Below, piece after piece: positions 676 through 52,520 of a stretch of DNA of 55,243 bases (the first letter of the stretch is position 1; every line of letters starts with the position of its first letter). Source of the DNA: a virus (lineage: Duplodnaviria > Caudoviricetes); IMG/VR virus record IMGVR_UViG_3300032265_002780, positions 1 through 55,243 of that record, one strand, 5' to 3'. The notes beneath the pieces were generated by a model that ran no database searches, was not told the origin of the DNA, and was given only the letters and a program-made list of their open reading frames with translations. The position numbers and the translations under genes were made by a program.

Positions 676-771
676 TTTTTATCTCCTTTTAAGATATAGA
701 TAGATGATGCCTTAATTAGGCGGGAATTGAAACCCTTTTTTATATAATTTTTCATCTATTTTTTCCCCTAT

Positions 772-1575
772 TTATATAGAGAATAGTTTCCCGTCTACAT
801 AACATGTGTAGTCACGAGAAATTTCCACAATTTGTACATGAGGATGTTGACCATTCTCAATATGTGCAATTGCGAAACCTTTTTGCCAGTCATGATTTTG
901 TGTGTAATTCATACCTGCAGACTTTTCATCACACATATGACCGATTTCATATCCACGAAGAATTCTTCCATTTGTTTCTAGTGGCAGTTCATATGTAACA
1001 AAATGCGAAGCAATTCTATGTGAATGTCCTCTAATTAAAGATACTTGAAGATCAAGAACATCTTTTCTTACCGCCCCAGAGTCAGCAATTGAAAGTCCAT
1101 GATGAACATGGATGTCTCCAAATCTTTGCTTAGGCAATTCATTATAATAAATATAATCATAACCAAGGGTATCTAAAGACCACAAAGATTCTGGTGTTAT
1201 ATCAGCAAGATATTCTGGAAGCTTTTTATCTAAATAATCAAAAATTCTAATATCGTGATTCCCCAAAGCTGAAAATAATTGTGCTTCTGGCAACATCTCA
1301 CGGGTTTTTGCATAAAAATCTCTTGCACCTTTTGCTTCATGTCGCATCATTGGAACAATTAAATCTTTGCTATCATTTTTATGAAGCTGCATAAATTCTG
1401 CAGACTTTCCTTCTGTATATTTGCTATAGCAAGCTTGATCATCTGTATCTCCAAGATAATCAACAACATCTGGCTTAAACCATTTCATAACCTTGAACCA
1501 AAGTTCAATGGCCTTGTCATCTTGATACGGGAACTGCTGATCAGATGATAGCATCCATTTTAAATCATTACTCAT
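772..1575 (-). CDS. calcineurin-like metallophosphoesterase
   Basis: Motifs SSDQQ, GDTDD, GNHD, HHG and GHSHR in the canonical order. Confidence 0.85.
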   Translation of the reverse strand: MSNDLKWMLSSDQQFPYQDDKAIELWFKVMKWFKPDVVDYLGDTDDQACYSKYTEGKSAEFMQLHKNDSKDLIVPMMRHEAKGARDFYAKTREMLPEAQLFSALGNHDIRIFDYLDKKLPEYLADITPESLWSLDTLGYDYIYYNELPKQRFGDIHVHHGLSIADSGAVRKDVLDLQVSLIRGHSHRIASHFVTYELPLETNGRILRGYEIGHMCDEKSAGMNYTQNHDWQKGFAIAHIENGQHPHVQIVEISRDYTCYVDGKLFSI

Positions 1576-1600
1576 ATAATCCTTTGTCTAGGTTTAATCA

Positions 1601-1630
1601 ATTGTAGCGTACTGTATTGTTTTTTGTCAA
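1601..1630 (-). promoter_or_regulatory. sigma70-type promoter
   Basis: TTGACA-18 nt-TACAAT upstream of the phosphoesterase gene. Confidence 0.65.
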
Positions 1631-1887
1631 GCAACATGTGCTTTATTATGCTCTATTCTTGAACATAAAAAAAGATTAATTAACCTGTTATCCATCTTAT
1701 CTTCATTAATATGATGAATGGTTTCCCAATCTTCTATAATTCTATTTAATTGTTTTTCTATTATAAGGCGGTGTTCATAATACCAACCTTTAAAATTTTT
1801 AGGTTGTTCTGGTACTTTTATTAAAACATAGCCTTCACGACTTATTTTCCTATCCCGCTTTGTCCAAGCTTTGATAGGTTCATACAC
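1627..1887 (-). CDS. HNH endonuclease (HNH_3-like)
   Basis: GYVLIKVP...YEHRLI...IHHINEDKMDNRLINL...H. The likely start is the GTG at 1887, overlapping the upstream TAG. Confidence 0.8.
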   Translation of the reverse strand: MYEPIKAWTKRDRKISREGYVLIKVPEQPKNFKGWYYEHRLIIEKQLNRIIEDWETIHHINEDKMDNRLINLFLCSRIEHNKAHVA

Positions 1888-2291
1888 TATCCGTTTCCTA
1901 CTGCAATCCACCAAATATATCCTTTTGAGCTTGGCGGTGCTGGGCTAACATTAACATCTACATATGTTTTAGTTGGAACTGTTGCTTTTCCTAAATATGC
2001 TGTTCTTACAACTCCATCTTGACTTGAACAAAATGCTACAACATCTGGAGGTGAAGTAAAAATTTTTTTAAAAGTTACTCTTGTTGTTGCTCCTGCATAA
2101 AGGGTATGTCCTGAATCAATAACTTGTTTTCCAGATGCGGTACTTCCATCAGGATTAACTATAACATTTGTAGCATTTGCAATTAATTGATCAATTTGAT
2201 CTTGTTGCTTATTTACTGTATCAATTAATACTGAAATAGTTGTATAGTCAATAACTGCATTGTCTGATTGAATAATCTTGTTACTACTCAT
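1887..2291 (-). CDS. hypothetical virion/tail-associated protein
   Basis: N-terminal coiled coil, then a beta-rich 'VTFKKIFTSPPDVV...YIWWIAVG' domain like small tail-fibre C-terminal domains. Confidence 0.5.
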   Translation of the reverse strand: MSSNKIIQSDNAVIDYTTISVLIDTVNKQQDQIDQLIANATNVIVNPDGSTASGKQVIDSGHTLYAGATTRVTFKKIFTSPPDVVAFCSSQDGVVRTAYLGKATVPTKTYVDVNVSPAPPSSKGYIWWIAVGNG

Positions 2292-4431: not shown

Positions 4432-7400
4432 TTAATAAACCAATACTATTAAGCCAACATTTGATGATGATGCTGTATATGGATTTGAGCCAGATGCTGC
4501 AACAATATTTCTTAATCCTGCTGTTGCTATTCCAGATGCGTTACCAACGGTTACTCCTCCTGAAGTGGCACTAAGATAAGAATTTGTACTAAATATTAAT
4601 TGTGCTGATGTAGAATTTAAAGATAAAGACCCGCCTGTATTTGTTCCAATGCTTATTGAATTTCCATTAGATAAACTTACATAAGAACTATTATCAGCAC
4701 TTTGCATTTGAATTATTCCAGAGCTATATCCTAAAATTGATCCTGCAAGAGATGCTCCATAACTAAAAGAAATTACATCTGAGCCGCTGTTACTTATTTT
4801 TACACCTTGACCGCTAGTTAAATAAGTTAAAGTTTGAAAAGATGAACCTGTAATTGTAGACGCAGTGATTGATCCAGTAAATGTTCCACTTGTAGCAGTT
4901 ATTGCTCCAGATATTGTAGCATTAGAAGCATGTAATGTTCCATCAGCATTTACATAAAAAGCATTTGATGAAGGAGTTGCTGAATTTCCCGCCCATAAAA
5001 CTGTTGTATTTGTAGCTGATGGTGCTGCTAATCCAACATAATAACTTGACCCACTTGTTGTATTTGCAGTAATTTTTGCATTTGTTGAATCAAGAGTAAT
5101 TGTGCCAGTTCCTGATGTTGCAGTAATATTTGGATTTCCAACTGTCCAACCACCAATATTTGCTGATTTAGTTGTAAACAAACCAGTTGTAGCATCAATA
5201 GTTGTAATTCCTTGTGTAGTTGAATTACTAAATGTTAATCCTGTTGAATTTAATATAAATCCTGCAGACGTTAATGATCCATTTGAATTAAGAGTTCCAG
5301 AATATATTGAAGCCCCGCCTGTTATTCCTGATGCTATTGAAACGTTTCCAGAAAAGCTACCGCCTGTTGCTGTAATAGTTCCATTAACTATTGCGCCTGT
5401 TGCATACATAACTCCTGCAGATGTAACGTGAAAACCTGATGAAAGATTAGAAGAAGAAGCACCGACATCTAATTGTCCGCCACTTATCGTTATATTACTT
5501 GCTTTAACTGCACCTAAAGGTGTTACGCTAAATGGGGCGGTATTGTCAGAATTTGAAGAACTTGTTGCACCTGCCCAAAATGCATAATTAGTATTAGATG
5601 CAGACAATCCAGTATATTTTGTAATTCCACTTATAAGTAAACTTTCAATTTTATTTGATGATATTGCCCAGTCCGCAATCTTTGCATTGATAGTTGAAAA
5701 TGTATATCCGCCTGAACCAGCATTTGATATTATTGATGTAGTTGGTGATGTTCCAGTTGTTGCGGATCCATCATAAGCAAATATTCCTGAGTATGAATTA
5801 TTAGTGTTGTAATATGAATCAACGCCAAGCAGTATTCTTGCGCCTGTTGATGAAGATGAGCCAACATATATTGCGCCTGCAGTTCCGCCTACTTGTACAG
5901 CATTTTGAATAAGACTTAATGCAGGGTTTATAGGTGTTATTGTTAATGCTGCAGATGTCAAAGAAGAATTACCAAAATCATCATAATATCTTATAACCAC
6001 TGATGTTGGAACATATAAATTATTAAATATATTAGCTGGACTTGGACCAGAGTACACGAGGCCCTGCATTGAATAAGTGCCTGATGCTTGGGTTGTTAAT
6101 GGATTACTTAGGGTTAAAGTAAATGTTGGAGCAGATCCAGATACTGAGGATACATAAGTATTTGCTGGAATTCCCGTTCCAGTTATAATATATCCATCAA
6201 TCACAGATGTTAATGTATTGCCATCATTATCTTTAACATTATTTACCGTTAATGTTGTAGCATTTGTTGATCCGCCAGAAACATATGACATTGTAATTGC
6301 ATCTGGGGGTTGTGTTGGCCAAGACGTATTTGTAAATTTTTCATAAACTTCAGCATATGTTGCTGGAACAGTTGAAAAATCAAACGTTAGAGCATATCCA
6401 TCAACTACCGCAATAATTGTTGGTGTTGGAGTTATTCCAGATAATCCGTTTGCTCTTGCTGGAACGTTAAAAGAAACTCCGCTACTTGGTACATCTGTTA
6501 CTGAATAACTTAACATTACTCCAGAGAAAGATGAGAAATATTGACCAAATTGTGCAAATATTTCCGACTTAGTTATTGTATAAGATTGATTTAAATTTGA
6601 AGTGCCATTTGGGAAAAAATAAAAATATCCTATTTGTGAGTTTGGTGCAGTTAATTTAATTAAATACCTAATTCCTGCATTTGTTGATGGTATTGTAAAT
6701 GGTACAACAATATTGTTTCCCGACCAAGACACCGTTCCGATAGTTACTTCGGTTGGCGAAGTAGTATTTACTGTTACGGGTGATGTTGGTGTTATAGCAT
6801 ATGCAGTTGAATATGCTGTAAAGTTTCCTATTGTATCAACAAATCTTGCTCTTACCCACCTTTTATTTGTATTTGGTGAAATTATAATTGATGGATTTAA
6901 TGTACCAGCATATACAACGTTATATCCAGTTCCTGGATTTGTGCTTGAACTTGATTCAACTTCTTCAATTGATATTGCATTAAAAGAAGGATCTGTTTGT
7001 GAATTCCATGCTACGCTGTATCCATTTGTAACAGAAGAAACTGTAATTGTTGGAGCACTTAAAGACGGAACATATGTTGCTGCTGCTGCTGTTGTAGCAG
7101 TACTTTGATTTCCAAATCTATCTTCTGCAACAATGCTTAAATTAATTGAAGTAGAAACAAAACCAAACATAGACTTATTTTCAGCTAAACTAAATGAATA
7201 TGATCTTGCTGATATAGGAAGGATTACAGATTTAGTTGCACTGCCTTCCGTAAAAGATAAAATAAAGTCTTTTGAAAAGTCTGGTGATCCCGCCGTCCAG
7301 CTCCAAGTAACATTTAATGTTGTTCCAGTCCAAGAACTAGTTAGTCCTGTTGGAGCATTAGGCTTTGGAATACTTGCTGCATCTGTTGTGTTTAATAGTG

Positions 7401-8400
7401 TACCTGCAACATCTATGCTTGTTGCAGAAAAAGAACCATCGTCATACCAATAATTTTTAGAATTTATATATATACCATTTTGACCACTTGTGCCAACTCC
7501 TGGTCCAATCTTAATTGTTCCTGCTGTAACTTGTCCAGCAAAGTATGCTTTTCCAGTTAATGCGTCAATATAAAATTCTTTTACTCCATTATTATATCCA
7601 GCTAAACCTGTTTGATTTAATACAACGCCTGTTCCAGTTGTTACTCCGCTTACTACATCTATGCTTCCAGCATCTGAAAAAGTACCAGCATATACTGCAC
7701 CGCCAGATAATTGAGTGTTAGTATTTACATTTGGTGAATTAAAGTTTGCACCACTTGCAGAAAAAGCGGGAGTTGTTATATTGAATGGATTACTCCATTC
7801 TGAAAAAATAGTATTGCCAGAACTGTCTGTTGAAACCGCTCTTACTTTAATATCATAATTTTGATTTGGAGATAACTCGGTACTAACGTCAACTAAAACT
7901 CTATTTGTAGAAGCTATATCTGCTGGAGGATTATTGGTTGGAGTATTTGATCCAGCTGATGGAGATGGAGTTATGATTCCTTGATCCAATGTTTGGCCTG
8001 TAGGGCTTTTTGTTGTTACTGGTCCAGGTCCTGGAGTTTGTGTATTATTGTTAGTTGATCCTGTAGGAGTTACAGAAACTGTTGTTGTTTTTGCAACTGG
8101 CAATATAACAAGATTTTGTGAAGATGAATTTTGATATTGTTTTGTTACTCCAGCTGTACTACCATTATATGGAGTAACATATACATAATACTTATAGCCT
8201 GGATTTAAACCTGGAAAATCAAATGTAATTGTAGAGCCAAAAGCAGAGGCATAAATGGTAATTGGTTCTGGATTATATCCATGAACAACATCTGTTAATG
8301 AAATAACATATTTTGTTGTATTTGCTGGTTTTGCAAAAGTAAGGGTTATATAATTTGTATAAGCATTTATGCTTAAGTTACCAATTGTACCTACGCTCAT
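4432..8400 (-). CDS. large minor tail/central fibre protein with FN3 repeats
   Basis: 1322 aa. FN3 motifs (LNPGYKYYVYV, LSPNQNYDIKVRAV, PNAPTGL) and fibre-shaft repeats (PFSVTPLGAVKASNITISG, FYVNADGTLHASNATISG). Confidence 0.75.
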   Translation of the reverse strand: MSVGTIGNLSINAYTNYITLTFAKPANTTKYVISLTDVVHGYNPEPITIYASAFGSTITFDFPGLNPGYKYYVYVTPYNGSTAGVTKQYQNSSSQNLVILPVAKTTTVSVTPTGSTNNNTQTPGPGPVTTKSPTGQTLDQGIITPSPSAGSNTPTNNPPADIASTNRVLVDVSTELSPNQNYDIKVRAVSTDSSGNTIFSEWSNPFNITTPAFSASGANFNSPNVNTNTQLSGGAVYAGTFSDAGSIDVVSGVTTGTGVVLNQTGLAGYNNGVKEFYIDALTGKAYFAGQVTAGTIKIGPGVGTSGQNGIYINSKNYWYDDGSFSATSIDVAGTLLNTTDAASIPKPNAPTGLTSSWTGTTLNVTWSWTAGSPDFSKDFILSFTEGSATKSVILPISARSYSFSLAENKSMFGFVSTSINLSIVAEDRFGNQSTATTAAAATYVPSLSAPTITVSSVTNGYSVAWNSQTDPSFNAISIEEVESSSSTNPGTGYNVVYAGTLNPSIIISPNTNKRWVRARFVDTIGNFTAYSTAYAITPTSPVTVNTTSPTEVTIGTVSWSGNNIVVPFTIPSTNAGIRYLIKLTAPNSQIGYFYFFPNGTSNLNQSYTITKSEIFAQFGQYFSSFSGVMLSYSVTDVPSSGVSFNVPARANGLSGITPTPTIIAVVDGYALTFDFSTVPATYAEVYEKFTNTSWPTQPPDAITMSYVSGGSTNATTLTVNNVKDNDGNTLTSVIDGYIITGTGIPANTYVSSVSGSAPTFTLTLSNPLTTQASGTYSMQGLVYSGPSPANIFNNLYVPTSVVIRYYDDFGNSSLTSAALTITPINPALSLIQNAVQVGGTAGAIYVGSSSSTGARILLGVDSYYNTNNSYSGIFAYDGSATTGTSPTTSIISNAGSGGYTFSTINAKIADWAISSNKIESLLISGITKYTGLSASNTNYAFWAGATSSSNSDNTAPFSVTPLGAVKASNITISGGQLDVGASSSNLSSGFHVTSAGVMYATGAIVNGTITATGGSFSGNVSIASGITGGASIYSGTLNSNGSLTSAGFILNSTGLTFSNSTTQGITTIDATTGLFTTKSANIGGWTVGNPNITATSGTGTITLDSTNAKITANTTSGSSYYVGLAAPSATNTTVLWAGNSATPSSNAFYVNADGTLHASNATISGAITATSGTFTGSITASTITGSSFQTLTYLTSGQGVKISNSGSDVISFSYGASLAGSILGYSSGIIQMQSADNSSYVSLSNGNSISIGTNTGGSLSLNSTSAQLIFSTNSYLSATSGGVTVGNASGIATAGLRNIVAASGSNPYTASSSNVGLIVLVY

Positions 8401-8416
8401 CTATTTCACCCCCGCC

Positions 8417-9352
8417 CTATAATACCTGTACGTAATATTCTATATCCAATGGTGTGCCATAAATTTTTGCAATTGGGGTTGTAAGTAAAGACTTACTAAT
8501 TATATAATCTGTACTTGATAATTCTTGAGTTACTGAAGTTTTAATAGCATCAATAGTAAGAGAAGCTGTATTGTCTGTAGCTATAGAAATTGATGTAATT
8601 TGATTTGAATTATATATGTTTGAAGGCATATTGACATTTAAAGATTGATAATCAGAATTGTTTTGAAGGGTATATGGAAAAACATATGAATTGTTATAAT
8701 TATCAACCATTGTTATTGTTAAATTTCCAGCTACTGTATTGTATGCAAGAATCTGTAATGTATCTACATTTGTATATCCTAGCAAACTAAAATTAAATGT
8801 ATTGTTTGTATATAGTGTGTTTGGAGCCATGCCTATTGAAAACCCGCCAATTCTTGGCGATGCTGCTGCTTGAGGCATAAATCCAGTTAAATAAACTGTT
8901 CCTTGATTTGAAATATTTTGAGTATTATTATTAACCGATGCATACCAGTTTGTTAAATCAGAAAAATCTGTAATAATTTGATTGCTTCTATTTGAAACAT
9001 CTGTAGATCTATGCTCTGGGTATAACCCTACTTCATAAATATTTGCATAAAGGTTTTCTGGAAGAGTTCCTCTTATTACAATTAAATCTGGATTTGATGC
9101 TGTTGCAGATTGATAAGTTTTTAAAGTTACAGGAACCCTTGCTGTTTCAAAATTTAATTCAATATCTGCTGAGCTTACAGATGTATTTAATGCCCCTATG
9201 CATAAATCTGAAGCCCAATCAGATTTAACGCCAGCTAAATATTGAAGCAAGATTTTTCTACCATTAGTAGTAATTAAATTTTCAGATCTTCCTATTTCTA
9301 AACCGTTTTGTTTAAAAATATATGTTCCTTTAAAAAATTGTGATTGGTCCAA
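8417..9352 (-). CDS. minor tail/baseplate-like protein
   Basis: N-terminal 'NLITTNGRKILLQYLAG...ETARVPV...IYEVGL' pattern typical of tail-collar/baseplate proteins; tail-module position. Confidence 0.6.
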   Translation of the reverse strand: MDQSQFFKGTYIFKQNGLEIGRSENLITTNGRKILLQYLAGVKSDWASDLCIGALNTSVSSADIELNFETARVPVTLKTYQSATASNPDLIVIRGTLPENLYANIYEVGLYPEHRSTDVSNRSNQIITDFSDLTNWYASVNNNTQNISNQGTVYLTGFMPQAAASPRIGGFSIGMAPNTLYTNNTFNFSLLGYTNVDTLQILAYNTVAGNLTITMVDNYNNSYVFPYTLQNNSDYQSLNVNMPSNIYNSNQITSISIATDNTASLTIDAIKTSVTQELSSTDYIISKSLLTTPIAKIYGTPLDIEYYVQVL

Positions 9353-39216: not shown

Positions 39217-39227
39217 CGAAGGCGGGA

Positions 39228-40109
39228 TTAAATATTTTTTTCAGAGCCCAGTACGAGCATATTTTCAGTAAAAAAGTTATTATATGGTTTACATACAATA
39301 GCTACATTGTCAAATGTAGATTCAATTTCTTCTACAAGCTGGATATCAATAAATCTATTAAATTTATAAGAGTATATTTGATATGTATCATTAACTTCAG
39401 ATGCTTTTATAAAAGAAACTAAATCTTCTTTTTTGCATAAAATATAATGAGAGGGGGTAAAAACATCTCCATCTATATAAATATACTTGTCTGATGGACC
39501 CACATTTATTGAATCAACAACAGTTTCTACAAAATCTTTTTCAGGATCTATATTTTTAAAATCTATTCTTGATAAATCTTGAGAATTTATTTTTAAAGCC
39601 AATAATTTATCTCCAACTTTAAGTTGTTCTGAAGATTTTAATCCATTTAATGTTTGCACTTTTGTTTTAATATTTAAAGAATTTGACCAACCACCACCAA
39701 ATCCGTAAGGTGTAAAGCCAAACGGTGTAAAAGAAAATGGTACAAAAGAAAAGTTTGGAACAATTCCTGTTGTTGTTGAAATATAAGGCCCTGGGCCTGC
39801 AGCTGTTCGTGCTCTCAAACTAAATTCATATGTGTTGTTTACTGTAAAGCTTCCAGTTACTGTTATTGTCCCGCCCGCTGGATTTAAAGTTCCAGAATAT
39901 GTAATTGGTATTGAGGTTCCTAAAATATCAATAATATCTCCAGTATTTGTTCCAGAGCCTTGTAAAGGAATCAAAAATTCGCCATTAGTTTGTATTGGTC
40001 CGTATGTAAGTGTAACTGTTGTTGAGTTTACAACCGTATTTGTTAATGAAGCGGGTGAAGATGGAACTCCAACTGAATCTCCAGCTAAATTTGTTAAAAT
40101 ACCAGCCAT
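39228..40109 (-). CDS. FN3-like domain + Phe/Pro pentapeptide repeats + C-terminal Hint domain
   Basis: aa 1-118 FN3-like (YEFSLRARTAAGPG); aa 120-141 FSFVP-FSFTP-FGFTP-YGFGGGW; from S144 Hint block A (SLNIKTKVQTLNGLKSSEQLKVGDKLL), block B TPSH and a block F/G-like end NNFFTENMLVLG. Confidence 0.72.
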   Translation of the reverse strand: MAGILTNLAGDSVGVPSSPASLTNTVVNSTTVTLTYGPIQTNGEFLIPLQGSGTNTGDIIDILGTSIPITYSGTLNPAGGTITVTGSFTVNNTYEFSLRARTAAGPGPYISTTTGIVPNFSFVPFSFTPFGFTPYGFGGGWSNSLNIKTKVQTLNGLKSSEQLKVGDKLLALKINSQDLSRIDFKNIDPEKDFVETVVDSINVGPSDKYIYIDGDVFTPSHYILCKKEDLVSFIKASEVNDTYQIYSYKFNRFIDIQLVEEIESTFDNVAIVCKPYNNFFTENMLVLGSEKNI

Positions 40110-40809: not shown

Positions 40810-43800
40810 TTAAGCCTGTGCTTCTGTCCAGGATATACGTGCGTATACTTGAGCTGTAGTACTTGCAAGATTTTGTACAACAATTGTAAGTACATCTGGT
40901 CCATCTGGGTAAATACCAGTATTTGCAACTGCTGTTCCGCCACCAAGTATTGAGTTACCAAGATCACGAAGTGGAGATAAATCTGATGTTCCTGTACCTG
41001 CTACAAAGAATCCACCAGTTTTTTCACCACCGCTAAAGGTAACGTTTCCATTTAAAGAATAATCTGCAATTTGTGCAAGTGAAGAGTTTGGAACATTTGC
41101 TACTCCACCTATTGCATTTGTCCATGTTGTTGCTGCAGAAGGAACGCCATTTAGATATGCTAATACTAAAAGGTTAGATGTTGCAGAGTTTAAAACAGAA
41201 ATATCAAGAGTTGAAAGTGCCAACTGCATTCTATTTATAAGTTCACGAGCACCAAAACCTGCTGCAATACCATTGTCTACAGATGGTGCACATCTAATAG
41301 ATAGCAATGCTTTTGTATTTGCAAGTGAAAATGAAAGCGTAGCTGAAGATAATGTAGTAGCAATATTTTGATTAATTGTAAATGTTGTTGCAGAGTTAAC
41401 TGCAGTAACATAAGAACCAGCAGTTAGTGCTCCAGTTCCTGAAGTTACTGTTACTATTTGACCAACAGCAACCGCAGCAGTACTTGTTACGGTAATAATT
41501 GCTTGTGCTGATGAACCACTTGCGCCTGTAATTGTTTGAACAGTTGATGGCCCAATCTGAGTTGGAGCAGTTTGTCCATAAGTAAAGAGAAGAGATTTAT
41601 CTCCATCAAAACGACCATCCATAATAACTGATGTTCCCCAGTGTGATATTGAAGGAGCAAAAGTTGGATAGGCAAGTTCTACAGCAATTGGTGCTGTTGA
41701 AGAATATGTAAATGTTTGTCCAGTTGATGTGTTTGCACCATTTGATCCTGTTGTAACACCCATTGGTGGTACAACTACTGATGATGTAGAAGCTGTTGCT
41801 GCTTGACTAATTGTAAATGTATTTGCACCCGCATTAATTGAGGTAATATATGTTCCATCTGGAATTGTTGTAGCAATAACTCTTTGACCAATTTGTAGTC
41901 CTGCTGTAGCTCCTGCAGAAACAGTTGCTACACTTGAACCAGAGGCTAAAGTTGTTGATAGGGAGGTATTTCCTGCTTGACAACGAATTAAACCAGTAAA
42001 GCTTGTTGATGTTGTTCCTGTGTAATTAACATATTCATAATTTGAAGCATTACGAACAACCAAGGTTCCTGATGAAGGAAATTTAGATGTATCAGAAACT
42101 ACAATTGATGTATCTGAAGGATTAACTGTTGATGTTATAAATGTTGTTGGAGGTGTTGTTACTGTTTCATAACGTCCTGGAAGGTTTCCTGAACGCATAT
42201 ATGCTTCTGTATTAAGATTGTTATTAGGCATCTTATGAACATAAGTTACATCTCCACTAGGTCCTCTTAGGCCCCAACGAACAAATCCTGCACCATACCA
42301 TGTGTAATCAATATAAAACATTTGCATTTTAGATAGATCAAGACTGTATCCTGAAGGGCCTGTTCCATCCATTTTATCAAGATTCCATTGTGATTGTGGA
42401 ATTTTAGTATCAACTGTACGTGATACAATTGCATTTGTTGCGGTTGTTCCACGATATGATGGGCTAATTGTAAGGCTTGTGTCAGAAGCAATATCTGTTA
42501 CACGATAAGATTGTCCACGAAGAACAATATTATCTCCTGGAACTAATTGTTTTGAAAAATATGTTGGAAAAGATGAGTTTGTTTGAGTAATTGTATTTGA
42601 ACTATTTGTTAAAGTAACTTTTCCAGAAATTTGAAAAACAGAGTTACGACGAACAGCATAAATTGTTGTTCCATCAAATTCAAAAAATAAACCGTTTTGT
42701 TGATCAAATATACCTAGTCTATTTGATGCTCCATACCATTGAGCTACTGAAAGTGTATAGTTTCCTGAAGCAACTGAAGCAGACGGAGTAGTTGTTGCTG
42801 TATACGTAAATTGATTCCATCCAATTACCGATGTAACAACAAATGTTCCATTATATGCAGATTCATTTGCTCCAGCAACTATAATGGATGCACCTGGTTG
42901 AAGATTATGTTTTTCTTTTGTTTGAACTGTAACTGTTGTTCCAGAAGAAGTAATTACATCTAGATTTGCATAAGGCTTAAGAATTGTTCCAGATGACATT
43001 TGAATTCCCTTACCTGATTGATAACGGAAATAACGACGTGTTTGTCGTACTGCTTGTTCAAAATTTGATGAACCATTAGATGAGAAAAGTACTCCTCCAT
43101 CAAATGCTCTGTGAGCAAATGAACCTTGTGGGCGAACATAAACTGCTGCTGATGTTGCAACAAGTGTTCCACCAGTAATTGCAGCTGCTGGATAAACAAT
43201 AAATGTTGTAGGGTTTGTTATTGTGGATACAACAAAAGATCCATTTGGATTTGTTCCTGTTGCTCCAGTAATACCAGTAATTGCAATTTCATTTCCAATT
43301 GCTAATCCGTGTGGAACTGTAGTTGTTACTGTTAAAGCATTTGTTCCAGCAGCAAATGAGACTGTAGGTGCTGCACCAATTTGTGCACCAGAATATGCTG
43401 CTCCTGTATAAATTGCAGTTTTATTTGTATCAAAAATAGATGTAAATGATGTATTATTTGCTGCTCTTGCAGTATATGTAAAATTTGTTCCTGCAGAAAC
43501 TGTTTCTACAATAAAATTACCATTTGCAATACCAAGGTATGTATCAAGTATTGAAACTGGCGTTCCAACTGATGGAGGTGTTGTAGTCAATACAGTAACA
43601 GTTCTTGAATTTGAAGCCATTGTAATATCTGTGATGTTAGAAATTGTATATGGCTGTGAATATGCATATGGGCGATTATTAATCGTTGTAAGATTTTCCC
43701 ATTTAGAAATTTGTGGACCATATTCAAAGTCAGTATCAATAAGTGCTTGTGGAGATGATGTACGAAGCTTATTTGTTGGATCTAAAACTGTTTGATCTGG

Positions 43801-44331
43801 GGTAAACTTTTCTGCATATTCATCAATTGTAATTTGAATCTTATCTGTTGATGACATTGCAGATGTATTATAATTTAGAACAATTACTGTATTTGCTGCA
43901 GCAGTAATAGTTCCTCCAGAAATCCATGTAGTTCCCGCTGTTAAATAACCAGCTGCAGTTTGAGCAATAGTAAATTGTGTAGAAGTTGCAGAAGCAACAA
44001 TACCAGTAATATTAAAAGCGCTAGGAGTTGTGCCTGTAATAGTTACTGTTTGTCCTGGTAAAAATGAATTATTTGCAGTAATTGTAGTTATTGTTCCTAC
44101 GGTTGCAGGTGCTACAGACATACCTGTTACATAAGCAATTAATTGGTTATCAGTATAACTAGAATATGAAGTTGCTAGGAGGGAGGCATCAGAAAAATTA
44201 TAAATTACTTTGTTAGCAGTAACGTTTGTAATAAGTACTAAACGTTCTCTTCCAATATATCTTGGTAATACTACTGTTTTTGTACTTGGTACAAATGTAT
44301 AACCTGTTTCTAACAAAATCTTTCTTGCCAT
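40810..44331 (-). CDS. large virion structural protein with repeated beta modules
   Basis: 1173 aa. Several 'TVTT..PH.L..G..I.I.G....NG.F.V' repeats, interleaved with blocks (LIDTDFEYG, RQTRRYFRYQSGKG, MFYIDYTWYGAG, SHWGTSVIMDGRFD) recognised from phage virion proteins. Confidence 0.7.
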   Translation of the reverse strand: MARKILLETGYTFVPSTKTVVLPRYIGRERLVLITNVTANKVIYNFSDASLLATSYSSYTDNQLIAYVTGMSVAPATVGTITTITANNSFLPGQTVTITGTTPSAFNITGIVASATSTQFTIAQTAAGYLTAGTTWISGGTITAAANTVIVLNYNTSAMSSTDKIQITIDEYAEKFTPDQTVLDPTNKLRTSSPQALIDTDFEYGPQISKWENLTTINNRPYAYSQPYTISNITDITMASNSRTVTVLTTTPPSVGTPVSILDTYLGIANGNFIVETVSAGTNFTYTARAANNTSFTSIFDTNKTAIYTGAAYSGAQIGAAPTVSFAAGTNALTVTTTVPHGLAIGNEIAITGITGATGTNPNGSFVVSTITNPTTFIVYPAAAITGGTLVATSAAVYVRPQGSFAHRAFDGGVLFSSNGSSNFEQAVRQTRRYFRYQSGKGIQMSSGTILKPYANLDVITSSGTTVTVQTKEKHNLQPGASIIVAGANESAYNGTFVVTSVIGWNQFTYTATTTPSASVASGNYTLSVAQWYGASNRLGIFDQQNGLFFEFDGTTIYAVRRNSVFQISGKVTLTNSSNTITQTNSSFPTYFSKQLVPGDNIVLRGQSYRVTDIASDTSLTISPSYRGTTATNAIVSRTVDTKIPQSQWNLDKMDGTGPSGYSLDLSKMQMFYIDYTWYGAGFVRWGLRGPSGDVTYVHKMPNNNLNTEAYMRSGNLPGRYETVTTPPTTFITSTVNPSDTSIVVSDTSKFPSSGTLVVRNASNYEYVNYTGTTSTSFTGLIRCQAGNTSLSTTLASGSSVATVSAGATAGLQIGQRVIATTIPDGTYITSINAGANTFTISQAATASTSSVVVPPMGVTTGSNGANTSTGQTFTYSSTAPIAVELAYPTFAPSISHWGTSVIMDGRFDGDKSLLFTYGQTAPTQIGPSTVQTITGASGSSAQAIITVTSTAAVAVGQIVTVTSGTGALTAGSYVTAVNSATTFTINQNIATTLSSATLSFSLANTKALLSIRCAPSVDNGIAAGFGARELINRMQLALSTLDISVLNSATSNLLVLAYLNGVPSAATTWTNAIGGVANVPNSSLAQIADYSLNGNVTFSGGEKTGGFFVAGTGTSDLSPLRDLGNSILGGGTAVANTGIYPDGPDVLTIVVQNLASTTAQVYARISWTEAQA

Positions 44332-44332: not shown

Positions 44333-44791
44333 TTAATTCGCTCCTAATAGAATGTCCATTGCTTTAAATGGATAAGTATTTGTACTGCTTTGTGTTACGG
44401 GTCCCGCCATTATTCTTGCATTAAATGTTGATCCTGCTGGTGGTACTTCAGAAAAAGCAATATACCCATCTGAATCTATTGTAAAACCATCATAACTGAA
44501 AGGGGTTCCCCAAACAACTTCTGGAAAGCTTACATTTTGAATTATACCATTTAAGCTTAATAAAAGCGTAAAAGGGTTGGTTATTGCTTGAACAACGCCA
44601 TTGTTTTTTGGATAAAACCTTGATTGAATTCCATCAAACTCATATTGAAGATTATCTAAAGGTACTATGTCTGGCAATGTAATATTTGCTGTTCCTACTG
44701 ATTGCCATGCAGTTCCATTCCATGACCAAGTGCGACCAGCGTATGAATATTGCTGATTAAGGGAGGGGTTGGAAGGAAATACTATTGCCAT
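44333..44791 (-). CDS. virion protein with 'MAIxFP' N-terminal module
   Basis: MAIVFPSNPSLNQQYSYAGRTWSWNGTAW followed by an 'FDG...LSLNGIIQ...FSEVPPAGS' domain. Confidence 0.65.
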   Translation of the reverse strand: MAIVFPSNPSLNQQYSYAGRTWSWNGTAWQSVGTANITLPDIVPLDNLQYEFDGIQSRFYPKNNGVVQAITNPFTLLLSLNGIIQNVSFPEVVWGTPFSYDGFTIDSDGYIAFSEVPPAGSTFNARIMAGPVTQSSTNTYPFKAMDILLGAN

Positions 44792-44794: not shown

Positions 44795-45157
44795 TTATCC
44801 TTGTGTTCCTTCTGTAAATAAATGCTCGTCATAAATAGTAGCTTCTGCAATAGTGGCGGGAGGTACATAATTACCACTCTCATCCTTAGTCCACATTGCC
44901 TTTACATCTTTATGAACAATATCTCCAGTTACATCTGAAGCATATACTGTTGAATTAATTCTTAAAACTTTATTGCCAAACATCTCTTCTACAAAATAAA
45001 TAAGGGGGGCATCTACCCATTCCCCGTCAATATATTTTTTAGCTAAAACTGTGTGTGGGTCAATACTGTCATCTAAAGGAGTAGAATTTCCTACAAAATT
45101 GCTTGAATTAACAAAGGCAAAAGCCACTCCGTCTTTAAATTGAATCCAATTTGTCAT
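44795..45157 (-). CDS. hypothetical protein, possibly a fibre chaperone
   Basis: SD AAGGAG; directly follows the four-paralog array. Confidence 0.6.
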   Translation of the reverse strand: MTNWIQFKDGVAFAFVNSSNFVGNSTPLDDSIDPHTVLAKKYIDGEWVDAPLIYFVEEMFGNKVLRINSTVYASDVTGDIVHKDVKAMWTKDESGNYVPPATIAEATIYDEHLFTEGTQG

Positions 45158-46682: not shown

Positions 46683-47015
46683 TTAGGATATCTCAACACC
46701 ACTTATATGAATTGCTAAAGCTGAGCTTGTTGATGCCCATCCAACGATTGTTTGTGTTCCCGTCCCGCCTAAAACTTGCTTTAAATCAAAAAAAGCAACG
46801 CTGTTGGCTCCTACTGTAACTGCTGTTGCAATTTGTACTTGAGTGCCAGTAGCGTCTGGAATTGTTAAATTAAATGATGCTGCAGAAGCAGTACTATTAC
46901 TAACTACAATATTAGTAATTGTTGTAGTTGTTGATGAATTTGGAACTGTGTATAAAACAGTTGTATTTGTTGTTGTTAAAACTGTACGTGCTAAAAGTTT
47001 TGTTATTACTGCCAT
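46683..47015 (-). CDS. small beta-sandwich virion protein
   Basis: 'LYTVP...TTITNIVVSN...HISGVEI'; SD AGGAG. Confidence 0.65.
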   Translation of the reverse strand: MAVITKLLARTVLTTTNTTVLYTVPNSSTTTTITNIVVSNSTASAASFNLTIPDATGTQVQIATAVTVGANSVAFFDLKQVLGGTGTQTIVGWASTSSALAIHISGVEIS

Positions 47016-47068: not shown

Positions 47069-48619
47069 CTAAATTGCATCCATAATTTTTAGTATAAGAA
47101 CGTCATCTGCCCATCGTATACCTGGTGATTGTGTTGAATCTACAACAAGTGTTTGAAATTTTGTACCAACTGGAAGTCTTGTTGTTGATTGAAAACCATT
47201 ACCTACTATTAAATCACCTGTATTAGTAATAAGTGCATTAAAGTTACCCAGAGGTCCTTGAACTCCTTGTAATCCCTGCACTCCTTGTACGCCTTGAATT
47301 CCTTGCGCTTGATTAAATCCACCACCTTGCAAACCTTGAGTTCCTTGAAGTTGTGCATAACCAAATCCTTGAATACCTTGTGTGCCTTGTGGACCTTGAA
47401 TACCTTGAATGCTTAAACCTTGAAGGCCTTGAGTTCCTTGAAGTTGTGCATAACCAAATCCTTGAACACCTTGTGTGCCTTGTGCACCCTGAATACCTTG
47501 TGTACCAGTTGCTCCTTGTAAACCTTGTAAACCTTGTGTACCTTGTGCTTGATTAAATCCGCCACCCTGAAGACCTTGTACACCTTGTGAACCTTGAACT
47601 CCCATAAGATTATCATAAGATTCAAACCATTCTGCACCATCCCAAATATATGTTCTTCCGTCATTAATATTTATCCATCCCGACCCAATTAATGGTGAAG
47701 ACGGAGGTGTTGATGAAATTGCATATGTGTTTACATTTCCTTGAATGCCTTGTAAGCCTTGTATACCTTGTGTGCCTTGTAAACCTTGAGTACCTTGAAT
47801 ACCTTGAATACCTTGTATACTTATGCCTTGTAAGCCTTGTATACCTTGTGTGCCTTGTAAACCTTGAGTACCTTGAACGCCTTGAATACCTTGTATACTT
47901 ATGCCTTGTAAGCCTTGTATACCTTGTGTGCCTTGTAAACCTTGAGTACCTTGAACTGAACCAGCTTGTCCTTGAATACCTTGTAAACCTTGTGCTTGAT
48001 TAAATCCGCCACCTTGAAGACCTTGTAAACCTTGAAGACCCTGTGTACCCTGTGCAGCAGTTGGACCTTGAATACCTTGTGTACCTTGTAATCCAATTTG
48101 TCCAGCAACAGAAAATATCCATCCTGCATATGTTCCAGATCCGACAAATTTATCTGAGTTTACTGTGATAGAAGTATTTGCTGTTAATGAAGTAATTTGT
48201 CCTTCAATATAACTTGTTGGAGATCCCGACGGAACTACAATTACTCTTTGTCCATTTATAAATGCACCAGTACTTGACACTGCAAATGTAAGGGAGCCTG
48301 TTCCTAAAGTTATACTTGTTGTTGATGAAACACCTAAATAAGAAACGCCTTGTGTTCCTTGAATGCCTTGAATAGACAAGCCTTGCACACCTTGTGTGCC
48401 TTGAATGCTTAATCCCTGTAAACCTTGATTTCCTTGTGTTCCTTGAACGCCTTGAATACCTTGTGTTCCAGCGCCTGTTTGTCCTTGTAAACCTTGAACA
48501 CCTTGCGAACCAATTGTTGTTCCAATAGAATCCCAAGTAGTACCATTCCAAATCCAAGTGCGACCTTGGTAGCTGTAGGTTTGATTTAACGACGGGGATG
48601 ATGGAAAACTTATGGCCAT
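47069..48619 (-). CDS. collagen-like (G-X-Q) fibre protein
   Basis: MAISFP module, then three G-X-Q tracts separated by globular modules; near-perfect 78-bp internal tandem repeats. Confidence 0.88.
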   Translation of the reverse strand: MAISFPSSPSLNQTYSYQGRTWIWNGTTWDSIGTTIGSQGVQGLQGQTGAGTQGIQGVQGTQGNQGLQGLSIQGTQGVQGLSIQGIQGTQGVSYLGVSSTTSITLGTGSLTFAVSSTGAFINGQRVIVVPSGSPTSYIEGQITSLTANTSITVNSDKFVGSGTYAGWIFSVAGQIGLQGTQGIQGPTAAQGTQGLQGLQGLQGGGFNQAQGLQGIQGQAGSVQGTQGLQGTQGIQGLQGISIQGIQGVQGTQGLQGTQGIQGLQGISIQGIQGIQGTQGLQGTQGIQGLQGIQGNVNTYAISSTPPSSPLIGSGWININDGRTYIWDGAEWFESYDNLMGVQGSQGVQGLQGGGFNQAQGTQGLQGLQGATGTQGIQGAQGTQGVQGFGYAQLQGTQGLQGLSIQGIQGPQGTQGIQGFGYAQLQGTQGLQGGGFNQAQGIQGVQGVQGLQGVQGPLGNFNALITNTGDLIVGNGFQSTTRLPVGTKFQTLVVDSTQSPGIRWADDVLILKIMDAI

Positions 48620-48657: not shown

Positions 48658-48882
48658 TTAATTGTCATTGTTTGTAATCCAAGAATGCCATGAACATTCT
48701 TGATGAACAATTGGTAGAAAGGCTTCACCCTCTGCATTTTTTTGTTCTTCCTCCCAAACTTTGGCGGGAGGCAAAGTAGCAAGAATAGGATTTAACCATT
48801 CTTGTGCTTCTTGAATAGTATCAAATGTTTTTTCTTCTGTTGGAGATTTATCAACATCTCCATATCCTGCTGTATATGTCAT
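48658..48882 (-). CDS. hypothetical protein
   Basis: 74 aa; SD AAGGAG. Confidence 0.6.
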   Translation of the reverse strand: MTYTAGYGDVDKSPTEEKTFDTIQEAQEWLNPILATLPPAKVWEEEQKNAEGEAFLPIVHQECSWHSWITNNDN

Positions 48883-50104: not shown

Positions 50105-50926
50105 CTATACAAATCTTTCTACTCTTAAATTTGCTAATGTAAAGTTTGCTGTAGATCCACTTACATTTTTAACTCTTATCCACATTGAATTTCCTGAATC
50201 TGCTTCAAAATACCAAGGTGCTGATAAATTGTATGAAGTTCCATAAAATCCTGCTGTAGATAACATTACTGTTCCCCCGCCACTTGATGCAGAGCGAACC
50301 TCTATGTCAAACTGGGTTGGAGTATCAGCCGTTATATTAAATAATGATACCAGACCACGCTGACAAACAGAAGTTATTTCAGTTTCTGTAAATGATGTTG
50401 ATACTGGAATATTGCCCAAAGATACTGCAGATTTTGTAACTTTTGCTGTTGAACCTGAAGGTCCTTGTAAACCTTGTGATGCTCCTGAACCTTGTAATCC
50501 TTGTGGTCCGTTATATCCTTGTACGCCCAAATAATTTCCATAAGGTTCAAACCATTCTAAACCATCATAAACATATAGACGACCAGTGTTTGTATTTAAC
50601 CAAGCAGTTCCTGTTAATGGTGTTGCTGGAGGTGTTGTAGAAACTGTATAAACACCTTGCAAACCAATAAGTCCTTGAACACCTTGCAAACCAATAAGTC
50701 CTTGAACACCTTGAATTCCTTGACGACCTTGTATTCCTTGTACGCCTATTAAACCTTGTATTCCTTGAATACCTTGAATACCAGTAAAACCTTGAATACC
50801 TTGAGGTCCTTTATTTGTTGTAAGGTAATTATCAATTTCAGAAGCCAATGCATAAATATCCCTAGGGACGTCGGGAGTATCAGTATATTGTGGGTAGTTG
50901 AAACCCTTAGTAGTTTGCAGGCTCAT
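50105..50926 (-). CDS. short collagen-like protein
   Basis: 'T.KGFNYP..TD.PDVP.DI..LA..ID' fibre N-terminus, a G-X-Q tract, a 'W.NT..GRLY.YDG.EW' module and a globular C-terminus. Confidence 0.8.
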
Positions 50927-50934
50927 ATGCTATA

Positions 50935-50943
50935 AGTATACCA
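50935..50943 (-). promoter_or_regulatory. extended -10 promoter, leaderless
   Basis: TGGTATACT 8 nt before ATG 50926. Confidence 0.45.
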
Positions 50944-50965
50944 AAATAAGTACAAAATGCATGCA

Positions 50966-51520
50966 TTAAAGTCTTTGTAGATTATATTCTACAGATGATC
51001 TGTATGTTAAACTAATATCTTGTTTAAGCAATCTTTCAAATATTTCTTTGGATTCTACTTTTCTTCCCAGCCACCAGCCCGATACGCCTTTTTCAAATTC
51101 AAGGCAATATAATCCATAGTATTCAACATCAATTGGAAGAGCTTCTAAGCGGGAATTGTGAGTAAGCCCTACCTGAGCCCATGTATAACATTCCTGCCAA
51201 TCTTGTTTTCTTTCATAATATCTAGATAGGAGAAAATAAGCTTCTGGTCTATTTGGCAAATATTGTATTGCTTGTAACAAGCAATGTTTTGTAGTATGTT
51301 CTCTTTCACGTTGTGAATCAAAACAAAGAGACATTCTTAAAAGTGATGCATATACAACAAGTGGATCTATATCGTGTCCATATTCTGCAGCTCTTAAATA
51401 AAATGATATTGCAGATGCAGATTGACCCATTTCTTCATATTTTTTAGCAATCTCAAAATTAAGTTTTGGATTAAACATATCATGAGAAGCATCTTCAACT
51501 AACTTTTCAATTGTTGGCAT
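50966..51520 (-). CDS. TPR-repeat protein
   Basis: 'A..YE..GQ.ASA.SFYLRAAE', 'AIQYLPNRPEAYFLLSRYY'. Confidence 0.8.
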   Translation of the reverse strand: MPTIEKLVEDASHDMFNPKLNFEIAKKYEEMGQSASAISFYLRAAEYGHDIDPLVVYASLLRMSLCFDSQREREHTTKHCLLQAIQYLPNRPEAYFLLSRYYERKQDWQECYTWAQVGLTHNSRLEALPIDVEYYGLYCLEFEKGVSGWWLGRKVESKEIFERLLKQDISLTYRSSVEYNLQRL

Positions 51521-52520
51521 GTTGAATAATCTCCTCTATCATTTCTGTAACTAATTTATTTGGAACACGCAATACAAATGCTGCATTATCTTGAAATCCA
51601 AATGATATTAACAAATCATTATTATGTACTGCTGCACCAGCAGCAAATTCTATTCTTGCATCTAAGAATGAAAAATGTTCTGGAGATACTCCAATTAAAT
51701 TATATTCTTTATCCCATACACATAATCTATGACGATATACTCCATCTTTTTGATTAAGATAATTAAAAAATAGATTTACTTCGTGTGTAATAGATAGATA
51801 GTAATTACCAAAAGGGATTAATTGTGACCCGCCCCGTTGATCTGCAAGCATTGCAATGCCTGTTTCTTTAATTGAAACTTGATCGCAACGAGCGGGAAGA
51901 TCTGGGTAAGTCTTTACAATTTCAGTAGGAGAAGTCCACTTAACAAAATGATAAGGTTTATCAATAATAGGATACCAATTCTTTTCACAATATGATTCAT
52001 CAGTTCCTGGAGCTGGAATTCTAATACGAGATACTTCTTTTGCTGTCCAATTCTTTTTATCTAATTCAATCTTAGATAATTCCATACGACCTTCGCCGTT
52101 AGGCTTTGTATCTCTGCGAACACCAATATTATAATAGTCCCCGTCCCATTGAACTAAACGACAATCTTCTTGTCCAATAAACTCCCACACGGGCGGGACA
52201 TCAAGAGTACTAGTGTCAACTAAACAACTATTCATTACATTTAAATTATCATCTAAACGCATAAGATAATTAGTAGTTCTAAGTGTTAGATCTTTTTCTG
52301 GATGTAGATATGATAATGGCCCCCAAATTGACGGGAACTTTTGATTATTCTCAGAATGATAAAGAGTATAATTTGTATGTCTTAAATTTACTAGTATTTC
52401 TCCATCATCATCTATAAATATGGATGGGTTCATTAATCCCGTCCCAGATGTCAATATTTTTTCAATGACCAATGGTGCTAATTTTCCACCATATTGGACG
52501 GATTTTTGAACAAGATTCAT
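51507..52520 (-). CDS. five-bladed beta-propeller, GH130/GH43-like glycoside hydrolase or phosphorylase
   Basis: 'MNPSI', 'GQEDCRL', 'EKNWYP', 'RGGSQ', 'YRHR', 'IEFAAG', 'SFGFQD'. Confidence 0.7.
   Translation of the reverse strand: MNLVQKSVQYGGKLAPLVIEKILTSGTGLMNPSIFIDDDGEILVNLRHTNYTLYHSENNQKFPSIWGPLSYLHPEKDLTLRTTNYLMRLDDNLNVMNSCLVDTSTLDVPPVWEFIGQEDCRLVQWDGDYYNIGVRRDTKPNGEGRMELSKIELDKKNWTAKEVSRIRIPAPGTDESYCEKNWYPIIDKPYHFVKWTSPTEIVKTYPDLPARCDQVSIKETGIAMLADQRGGSQLIPFGNYYLSITHEVNLFFNYLNQKDGVYRHRLCVWDKEYNLIGVSPEHFSFLDARIEFAAGAAVHNNDLLISFGFQDNAAFVLRVPNKLVTEMIEEIIQHANN

Follow-up and report, generated by a model that had tools for sequence, protein, structure and literature searches.

The question raised by IMG/VR virus record IMGVR_UViG_3300032265_002780 is why an AT-rich phage genome carries so many copies of a word made only of G and C, GGCGGG (CCCGCC on the other strand), and what kind of machine might read it. 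The window analyzed here is the entire record, which is linear, 55,243 bases long, 34.6% G+C, and estimated to be about 50% complete. All of its long open reading frames (ORFs) lie on the minus strand. PHROG profiles identify a portal (28445-30022), a head maturation protease (25738-27174), and a major head protein (24551-25699), as well as collagen-like tail fiber proteins and large virion proteins, and a gene of 656 amino acids (aa) upstream of the portal (ORF 30406-32376) has a Laminin_G_3 domain and no PHROG family match; it is referred to below as the LamG-like gene. Among cultured phages, the closest are Streptomyces phages of the family Stanwilliamsviridae, about 129 kb in length and with 66 to 68% nucleotide identity across the portal-to-capsid genes. 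Searched with the portal, IMG/VR yielded 458 candidate stretches, 453 of them relatives, and the best 80 were retained as related loci. WhiB is encoded by four of the five larger related records, with its closest matches in Streptomyces phages, and the window sequence is present, as contigs, in 20 public runs from 14 studies labeled metagenome, freshwater, or lake water metagenome, none of them listed as RNA. The kinship with Streptomyces phages, the WhiB genes of the relatives, and the freshwater run labels point to a low-GC freshwater actinophage, and the window is, by the completeness estimate, about half of its genome.

By exact count, CCCGCC is present 30 times and GGCGGG 7 times on the plus strand, for a total of 37 sites; an earlier note, made by eye from the sequence alone, had given about these numbers, and every coordinate it listed is exact. 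Markov models of order 0, 1, and 2 predict 1.6, 2.4, and 1.7 copies of CCCGCC and 1.3, 0.4, and 0.4 copies of GGCGGG on the plus strand, and dinucleotide-preserving shuffles give 3.10 ± 1.67 over both strands, with a maximum of 7 and none of 100 reaching 37, in keeping with the note's expectation of few hits at about one-third G+C. The word is thus some twelvefold over expectation. When all 4,096 hexamers are ranked by z score (order 2), a Markov observed/expected comparison that the note had suggested and that includes the permutation CCGCCC, CCCGCC is first. The note had also asked whether similar G/C hexamers might be equally common, and they are not: the runners-up, CCGCCC (13 copies) and CCCCGC (11 copies), mostly overlap CCCGCC sites, and every other all-G/C hexamer has 6 or fewer. 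On the plus strand there are 44 CCCGC and 16 GCGGG pentamers, 23 of which lie outside the hexamers (about 20 had been estimated). The base 3' of GGCGGG is A at 23 of the 37 sites, G at 9, T at 5, and never C, and the 5' base is C at only 2; the heptamer GGCGGGA is accordingly observed 23 times, compared with 0.81 ± 0.90 in the shuffles. G precedes 9 of the 30 sense sites and follows 9 of the 30. The major capsid and protease genes are free of the word, as had been noticed, and so are an Ig-domain gene (20499-21302) and a gene for a 1173-aa virion protein (40810-44331). The longest GGCGGG-free gap spans 5.5 kb, from 33707 to 39221, and contains eight consecutive minus-strand ORFs of 183 to 258 aa without the word (34135-39200).

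Whether this excess is a property of the DNA or of the codons can be judged from reading frames and from words that differ by one letter. Reading frames were assigned by hand from the site contexts and the ORF list. Of the 30 coding-strand sites, 17 read GGC-GGG (Gly-Gly), 12 read NNG-GCG-GGA (x-Ala-Gly), none reads NGG-CGG-G, and one is intergenic; the seven opposite-strand sites comprise five that are antisense within genes and two that are intergenic. The several codon phases described earlier are therefore two frames, used 17 and 12 times, the sites described in intergenic DNA number three, and the rare codons described as forced are seen at the 12 frame-2 sites, which need the rare codon GCG. 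On the sense strand, GGNGGG has C as its variable base 30 times, T 5 times, and A and G once each, and GGCGGN ends in G 30 times, T 13 times, A 12 times, and C twice. By hand count, GGC is the first codon in 17 of 21 in-frame GGN-GGG pairs, and the two bases after G-GCG are GG in 12 of 17 cases. The A/T-substituted neighbors are equal to or rarer than GGCGGG, where an AT-rich genome predicts that they be several-fold commoner, and the opposite strand has 7 GGCGGG compared with 1 GGTGGG, 4 GGAGGG, 2 GGCGGA, and 6 GGCGGT. Because the single-letter neighbors are rare, and because the sites use two frames and also fall antisense and between genes, the whole hexamer is the unit. The neighbor-word and reading-frame counts support GGCGGG as a selected DNA-level word and not a codon effect. 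The neighbor words are themselves skewed to the coding strand (31:13), however, so part of the 30:7 strand bias of the window is generic.

The 17 Gly-Gly sites, all on the minus strand, are distributed along most of the window. They are at 4630-4635 and 5314-5319 in ORF 4432-8400; 8843-8848 in ORF 8417-9352, within a local hairpin (z = -2.8); 11384-11389, which continues as GGC-GGG-GGG, and 13271-13276 in ORF 10169-14401; 14449-14454 in ORF 14401-14934; 27297-27302 in ORF 27216-27587; 30439-30444 and 31066-31071 in the LamG-like ORF; 33702-33707 in ORF 33531-34145, within a local hairpin (z = -2.2); 50276-50281 in ORF 50105-50926; and 51828-51833 in ORF 51507-52520. Those with an A directly 3' of the word are at 17700-17705 (ORF 14931-19754), 22138-22143 (ORF 21931-22650), 23788-23793 (ORF 23092-24048), 39870-39875 (ORF 39228-40109), and 46764-46769 (ORF 46683-47015). 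The frame-2 sites, also on the minus strand and all followed by A, are at 2333-2338 (AAG-GCG-GGA, ORF 2284-2682), 4988-4993 and 7289-7294 (TGG-GCG-GGA and ACG-GCG-GGA, ORF 4432-8400), 11763-11768 (AGG-GCG-GGA, ORF 10169-14401), 14912-14917 (CAG-GCG-GGA, near the 5' end of ORF 14401-14934), 16603-16608 and 19216-19221 (ATG-GCG-GGA and TGG-GCG-GGA, ORF 14931-19754), 23354-23359 (GAG-GCG-GGA, ORF 23092-24048), 27894-27899 (GTG-GCG-GGA, ORF 27584-28441), 30704-30709 (GTG-GCG-GGA, the LamG-like ORF), 33020-33025 (GAG-GCG-GGA, ORF 32764-33570), and 44403-44408 (ATG-GCG-GGA, ORF 44333-44791). The remaining minus-strand site, 8411-8416, is intergenic, immediately past the stop of ORF 8417-9352 and 10 nucleotides (nt) ahead of the ATG at 8400.

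The word reads on the plus strand at seven places. At 719-724 it is intergenic, against the gene direction and followed by A, 48 nt past the stop of ORF 772-1575 and 44 nt ahead of the ATG (675) of a 59-aa ORF; at 39221-39226, again followed by A, it lies between the stop of ORF 39228-40109 and the ATG at 39200, with a TGATATAAT box directly after. The antisense sites are at 29948-29953 in the portal ORF (sense CCC-GCC, Pro-Ala; the site is also present in related locus L002) and, each followed by A, at 32118-32123 in the LamG-like ORF (sense TCC-CGC-CTG), 44855-44860 in ORF 44795-45157 (sense CCT-CCC-GCC), 48763-48768 in a 74-aa minus-strand ORF, 48658-48882 (sense CCT-CCC-GCC), and 52192-52197 in ORF 51507-52520 (sense NNC-CCG-CCN).

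These counts bear on the reading that the word has no dedicated function and is only a by-product, whether of preferred codon pairs, of amino-acid content, or of mutation or repair that depends on context, which we regard as unlikely. Most sites fall at Gly-Gly and Ala-Gly, which are frequent in tail proteins; GGCGGT and GGCGGA are above expectation too (36 GGCGGH compared with 10.2 expected); and sites are missing from conserved genes, namely those for the capsid, the protease, and the 1173-aa virion protein, as this reading would have it. It does not account for the use of two frames, the antisense and intergenic sites, or the preference for GGC before GGG and for GG after G-GCG, and further points against it come from the relatives, described below.

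In an alignment of the LamG-like gene among relatives, the site positions are not fixed, and sites are gained through both synonymous and nonsynonymous changes. At 30704 the window has GTG-GCG-GGA where relatives have AAT-GGT, CAA-GGC, or CCT-GGA, such that an amino-acid change created the site, and there are converse cases: L008 and L033 have TTG-GCG-GGA where the window has AGT-GGT, and L042 and L044 have GAG-GCG-GGA where the window has CAA-GGA. At 30439, the GGC-GGG of the window corresponds to GGC-GGT, GGT-GGA, or GGT-GGG in relatives.

Single-letter differences of this last kind raise the prospect of an Illumina artifact, in which GGCGGT or GGCGGA is miscalled as GGCGGG. CCCGCC/GGCGGG is a published trouble motif, at which exactly coverage drops, and GGCGG is described as error prone in Illumina chemistry (PMC4872057); the GGC-GGT of three relatives at 30439 would suit such a miscall. 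We nonetheless consider an artifact extremely improbable. A miscall could not create the rare codon GCG on which the 12 frame-2 sites depend, and these sites sit at glycines that are conserved in relatives; in a comparison with contigs from four public runs, those of X1 are identical to the window, and X2 has one difference over 29809-30807, which includes three sites; and none of the 40 differences listed (of 950) falls in a site. An error in one read direction would not outvote the other direction in a consensus, and both the enrichment and the polarity are present in finished isolate genomes sequenced at about 770-fold coverage. One of these is Phredrick, a lytic phage with determined termini and a terminal repeat of 765 bp (PMC10793280).

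The word is not peculiar to the window. GGCGGG is present in 77 of the 80 related loci, mainly on the gene strand, and the two-strand counts in ten larger related records are 32/12, 37/10, 49/24, 66/16, 41/19, 9/7, 6/0, 26/3, 8/4, and 24/5; the G+C content of related records is 33 to 41% where measured. Enrichment over composition is uneven, and the portal-centered 21.5 kb of L080 (32.9% G+C) has a single site, compared with 15 in the corresponding part of the window. The finished genomes of the Streptomyces phages Phredrick, Wakanda, and Faust (the isolates) have 75/26, 87/14, and 87/31 sites on the two strands, with the control word GGTGGG at 24/15 in Phredrick and 30/19 in Wakanda; in the left 22 kb of Faust there are 23 GGCGGG compared with 4.65 ± 2.26 expected, and 7 GGTGGG compared with 8.76. 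The main-strand density is 0.30 to 0.81 sites per kb in most records, a spacing of about 1.2 to 3 kb, and keeps to one order of magnitude between 33% and 47% G+C, which is a further argument against a by-product, as is the lack of enrichment of the control word. The enrichment is common to the whole phage group, from soil Streptomyces phages to the low-GC freshwater lineage, and is milder in the cultured phages. A literature search, mostly at the level of listings, found no published report of GGCGGG as a phage word. A minimum-spacing pattern (sites in the window are never less than 265 bp apart) was set aside as post hoc, and the related record G004 has 13 gaps of less than 250 bp.

The selected, dispersed DNA signal proposed in the earlier note thus stands with respect to the two frames, the antisense and intergenic sites, the amino-acid-changing gains, and the family-wide occurrence, although the strand bias that it emphasized is partly generic.

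Orientation along the genome narrows the choice of readers. In the window, the genes and the word share one strand, and polarity and gene direction are inseparable; the isolates, which have defined ends, pull them partly apart. The first 11.3 kb of Phredrick has eight left-facing sites and one right-facing site, the latter a hairpin partner of a left-facing one, and the remainder has 74 right-facing and 17 left-facing sites among the 25 of 26 reverse sites listed; at least 10 of those 25 have a forward site no more than about 30 nt away, which suggests that they are hairpin partners. Faust has 13 left- and 4 right-facing sites in its first 12.7 kb and 18 left- and 83 right-facing sites elsewhere. 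In Wakanda, counted by position only, the left-to-right ratio is 6:2 over the first 10.5 kb and 8:85 over the rest. The genes of Phredrick and Faust switch from the minus to the plus strand at about 5.8 kb, and GC skew and the control word switch likewise, yet GGCGGG still faces left to about 11 to 12.3 kb inside plus-strand genes (Faust 6353, 7086, 11254, and 12300; Phredrick 6978 and 11255), and right-facing sense sites are nearly absent from those genes. These left-facing sites, few in number and partly shared by descent, oppose both the coding strand and the GC skew, which counts against a by-product of coding.

Freshwater genomes have a comparable but broader arrangement. In the complete freshwater relative, G001, DNA of minus-strand genes has 26 minus-strand and no plus-strand sites outside 36 to 52.4 kb and no minus-strand and 3 plus-strand sites inside it, and all 12 plus-strand sites of the genome lie between 37.9 and 66.4 kb; from the parallel between its gene order and that of the isolates, its physical ends would lie near 67 kb of the contig. 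The share of sites in the opposite orientation is, in the window, 1 of 21 on the downstream side of the portal but 6 of 16 on the upstream side; the corresponding figures are 8 of 37 and 10 of 22 in G003 and 10 of 59 and 6 of 23 in G004, with gene strands checked to 40 kb in G003 and outside 20 to 60 kb in G004. A simple genome-wide polarity was rejected for the freshwater genomes, in which both orientations are present upstream of the portal. Taken together, GGCGGG is polar. It points outward to both genome ends from a zone, close to the portal or upstream of it, where its direction switches; the switch is about 11 to 13 kb from the left end in the isolates, or about 9 to 10% of the genome, and the freshwater zone is broad and not sharp.

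The sense bias also invites a reading in RNA, with GGCGGG as an element of the non-template strand that causes pausing or loads a factor, or as an RNA-binding site. The 30 sense compared with 7 antisense sites of the window, the ratio of about 4:1 in relatives, and the small inverted gene blocks of G001, which carry sites in their own sense orientation (6:1), are as expected of a transcription or mRNA signal. The left-facing antisense sites, and the near-absence of sense sites, in plus-strand left-end genes of the three isolates and in 36 to 52.4 kb of G001 are not, and GGCGGG is unlike the AAGGAG-like Shine-Dalgarno sequences ahead of genes here. Twenty sense sites folded with 40 nt on each side have no common RNA structure (mean z of about -0.27, with 3 of 20 below -2), and in relatives only some sites form GGCGGG...CCCGCC hairpins, such as the terminator after the capsid gene. 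A signal in RNA is therefore quite unlikely.

Recognition of the duplex without regard to orientation, either as a methylation or other modification target or as the site of a duplex-binding protein, is very unlikely. Compared with its A/T-substituted neighbors, GGCGGG is enriched about 7-fold in the sense and about 4-fold in the antisense orientation in the window, as a duplex site should be, and candidate enzymes are encoded: G001 has glycosyltransferases and a 2OG-Fe(II) oxygenase, and the isolates carry a C5 methyltransferase. In the isolates' long arm, however, the minority orientation is near background, at 18, 17, and 8 sites in about 116 to 118 kb compared with a shuffle expectation of about 12 to 13, and hairpin partners make up at least 10 of the 25 minority sites listed in Phredrick. 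Enrichment of a modification target is also not expected without some further benefit, and searches with PF00145 and PF01555 (C5 and N4/N6 methyltransferases), the only families searched, gave no match in 11 freshwater records, including the complete one. RNA structure, phage methylation, and Illumina artifact were thus each tested and found unsupported, which leaves the class of polar words that a moving machine reads on one strand. Of the four candidates put forward in the earlier note, a polar word of the Chi type or like the FtsK orienting polar sequences (KOPS) and a primase site fit the orientation switch, whereas a modification target and an orientation-blind binding site fit poorly.

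Within that class, the reading we favor, tentatively and as something well short of probable, is that GGCGGG, with A or G as the usual next base, is a polar signal, specific to one strand and under selection, that works like Chi. A helicase-nuclease would enter at a DNA end or break, move along the duplex, and read GGCGGG on the 3'-ended strand; on reading it, the enzyme would cease degradation and pass the end to the phage-encoded RecA, such that the linear genome would be protected and recombination-dependent replication fed. The reader could be a host enzyme of the AdnAB/RecBCD type or part of a phage recombination module; genes for RecA, for a Cas4-like nuclease, and for a protein with weak likeness to RuvC are present in relatives. 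As with known Chi words, GGCGGG is short, asymmetric, and over-represented (37 compared with 3.1; GGCGGGA, 23 compared with 0.81; top of the 4,096 hexamers), and there is precedent for phages rich in Chi: lambdoid coliphage LLS has 23 Chi sites, one per 1.86 kb, with a 20:3 orientation, and Pseudomonas phage MD8 has 32 in a single orientation, Chi being its most frequent octamer (PMC12315714). AddAB-type Chi words include AGCGG in Bacillus subtilis and GAAGCGG in Staphylococcus aureus (PMC5959072), with which GGCGGG has GCGG in common.

A number of points weigh against a Chi-like role. The enzyme that would read GGCGGG, and the effect of the word on it, are what we infer and not what was observed. 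The account of actinobacterial AdnAB in PMC5314763 knows of no Chi for this enzyme and allows that it may be Chi independent, and known Chi words vary between bacterial groups (PMC5959072), yet the identical word is present in phages of Streptomyces and of freshwater hosts. The Chi-rich phages reported in PMC12315714 are described as having no recombination module, unlike the phages here. A WhiB search of genome contigs returned three loci, all short phage-like contigs, and gave no usable host, and an alignment of WhiB sequences was too narrow to include unrelated actinophages. Unrelated Streptomyces phages have no excess, with 23/11 GGCGGG in phiC31 compared with 44/14 for the reversed word, and 38/30 in R4 compared with 45/35; both are temperate and hence a weak test of whether other phages of the same host share the word. 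Polarity is largely confounded with gene direction. Only a small number of left-facing sites oppose the genes, and since the three isolates inherited some of these in common, the independent events are fewer still. Sites crowd at the ends in Phredrick and Faust, and this is not clear in Wakanda. The same geometry also fits a primase site or a KOPS-like signal.

The occurrence of one word over very different hosts, its absence from phiC31 and R4, the phages' own recombination genes, and the lack of a described AdnAB Chi favor a phage-encoded reader, and for that reason a primase is kept as the main rival. In this alternative, which is a serious but doubtful possibility, GGCGGG is the start site for the phage DnaG-type primase, lying on the lagging-strand template of bidirectional replication from an internal origin about 11 to 13 kb from the isolates' left end, and a GC-rich primer site every 1 to 2 kb would have been maintained by selection while the genome drifted to low G+C. 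G001 encodes a Toprim and CHC2 zinc-finger primase (L085 18027-18989), a DnaB-like helicase, and a DnaE-type polymerase; a reader encoded by the phage accounts for the same word in soil and freshwater members and none in phiC31 or R4; polarity from an internal switch to both ends is the expectation for a lagging-strand template signal; and the main-strand spacing of about 1.2 to 3 kb is in the size range of Okazaki fragments. Against this, copying GGCGGG from its 3' end would begin the primer with C, whereas known primase sites are 3 to 5 nt long and primers begin with a purine, and we know of no precedent for hexamer enrichment caused by a primase. The freshwater region upstream of the portal also mixes orientations (10:6 in the window and 12:10 in G003), with no clean switch, and the origin position is itself a deduction.

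It is rather unlikely that the word is a site for some other strand-specific phage enzyme or protein, for example T5-like single-strand nicks or polar translocase blocks in the manner of KOPS or Ter. The word is strand specific, polar, and family restricted, with a switch about 9 to 10% from the left end, all of which would suit such a protein, and the lifestyle of T5 resembles that of the phages here. The latter are large siphophages, lytic, terminally repetitive, and rich in tRNA genes (PMC5764925). Pfam scans of 40 G001 ORFs, many of which have no match, gave no candidate nickase or translocase.

If the Chi-like reading is extended to its fullest form, and this we hold with a little more reserve than the reading itself, GGCGGG(R) could be the first control word of the Chi type to come from Actinobacteria or from phages that infect them, read by host AdnAB/RecBCD or by a phage replication or recombination enzyme, and held at about one site per 1 to 3 kb as the lineage fell from about 47% to about 33% G+C, with its orientation marking the replication or end architecture of genomes of 110 to 130 kb. 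Few DNA signals give insight into the replication, repair, and defense of a genome, and over-represented polar words, Chi and KOPS for example, belong to those few. No such word is known for Actinobacteria, and the response of AdnAB to Chi is treated as an open question in PMC5314763; the excess in cultured Streptomyces phages makes it testable in a laboratory host. Should a phage enzyme read GGCGGG, this would be a rare case of a virus with its own genome-wide polar signal. Whatever the reader, the word is a simple marker with which to orient fragments of this phage group and place their ends.

Several other features were seen alongside the word. CACAAGG is present 50 times in the window compared with 7.25 expected, always on the coding strand, and 42 of the 50 copies are in two gene regions of the minus strand, 47376-48465 and 53900-55238; their spacings are multiples of 9 nt, corresponding to collagen-like G-X-Y repeats (GGN-ACA-CAA) of tail fiber genes, and the extreme strand asymmetry of ACAAGG, CAAGGT, and CACAAG is due to these repeats. 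Hexamers with CCGG, GCGC, or CGCG are almost all absent from the window (0 compared with 0.2 to 1.6 expected for each); common restriction sites may have been avoided, or CpG lost in general. A conserved hairpin directly follows the capsid gene, at 24500-24560 in the window and at about 15440-15500 in L008, L040, L062, L065, and L066, and is succeeded by a T-run and, ahead of the next gene, a box like TGATATAAT; its stem varies among relatives with compensating changes and includes GGCGGGGG in several relatives but TAAGGGAGATA/TATCTCCCTTA in the window. In Faust (L102 1746-2866), the annotated DNA methylase is short, at 228 aa, its match to the C5 methylase profile is confined to the N-terminal part of that profile, and its gene adjoins one annotated as a homing-type endonuclease; it may be a split or interrupted gene. 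G001 codes for Asp, Arg(TCT), Leu(TAA), Gly(GCC), Gln, and Asn tRNAs and an odd tRNA-like gene called with a four-base anticodon, its tRNA genes being at 2822-2896 and 19351-19498 of L084, 3165-3236, 3361-3432, and 4324-4397 of L085, and 2188-2281 of L086. Contigs with a phage WhiB at 71 to 79% identity (L090, L091, and L092) are in metagenome bins labeled Bacteroidetes, Omnitrophota, and Bacteroidia; these contigs are probably of phage origin and were sorted there through their low G+C, and so are not evidence of a host.

Comparison with known systems places the word among several partial likenesses. EcoP15I sites in T7 are asymmetric hexamers found almost only on one strand of a genome whose genes run one way, a precedent that accounts for bias but not for excess or for a polarity switch. 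The stoperators of cluster A mycobacteriophages are, as here, dozens of dispersed asymmetric sites in an actinophage with one orientation relative to transcription; they are 13-bp repressor sites, mostly intergenic and in temperate phages, whereas the word here is 6 to 7 nt, mostly intragenic, and in lytic phages. Phage primase sites, GTC with GGGTC/TGGTC in T7 and GTT/GCT in T4, are likewise read on one strand, the lagging-strand template, and a phage primase is encoded here; those sites are 3 to 5 nt and not known to be enriched, and GGCGGG would give a pyrimidine primer start unless priming began at its central C. The KOPS of FtsK (GGGNAGGG) and the SpoIIIE recognition sequences (SRS; GAGAAGGG) are G-rich polar words that switch direction at defined points of the replicon, but they are 8-mers, read on the duplex by a chromosome translocase, and GGCGGG is a 6-mer. 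Bacterial AddAB-type Chi is oriented with the leading strand, away from the origin. Chi words of the AddAB/RexAB type are also short (5 to 7 nt) and contain GCGG (PMC5959072); for GGCGGG, recognition by such an enzyme is a conjecture, and a Chi for AdnAB is unreported in PMC5314763. The words of LLS and MD8 are the proven Chi of their hosts, in phages described as having no recombination module, whereas the phages here have RecA and a nuclease and very different hosts, and phiC31 and R4 do not have the word; the likeness is otherwise close, as theirs too is a short, G-rich, asymmetric word, the phage's most deviant or most frequent oligomer, present about once per 1.5 to 2 kb in a strong single orientation relative to the genome ends, with sites that turn over between relatives (PMC12315714).

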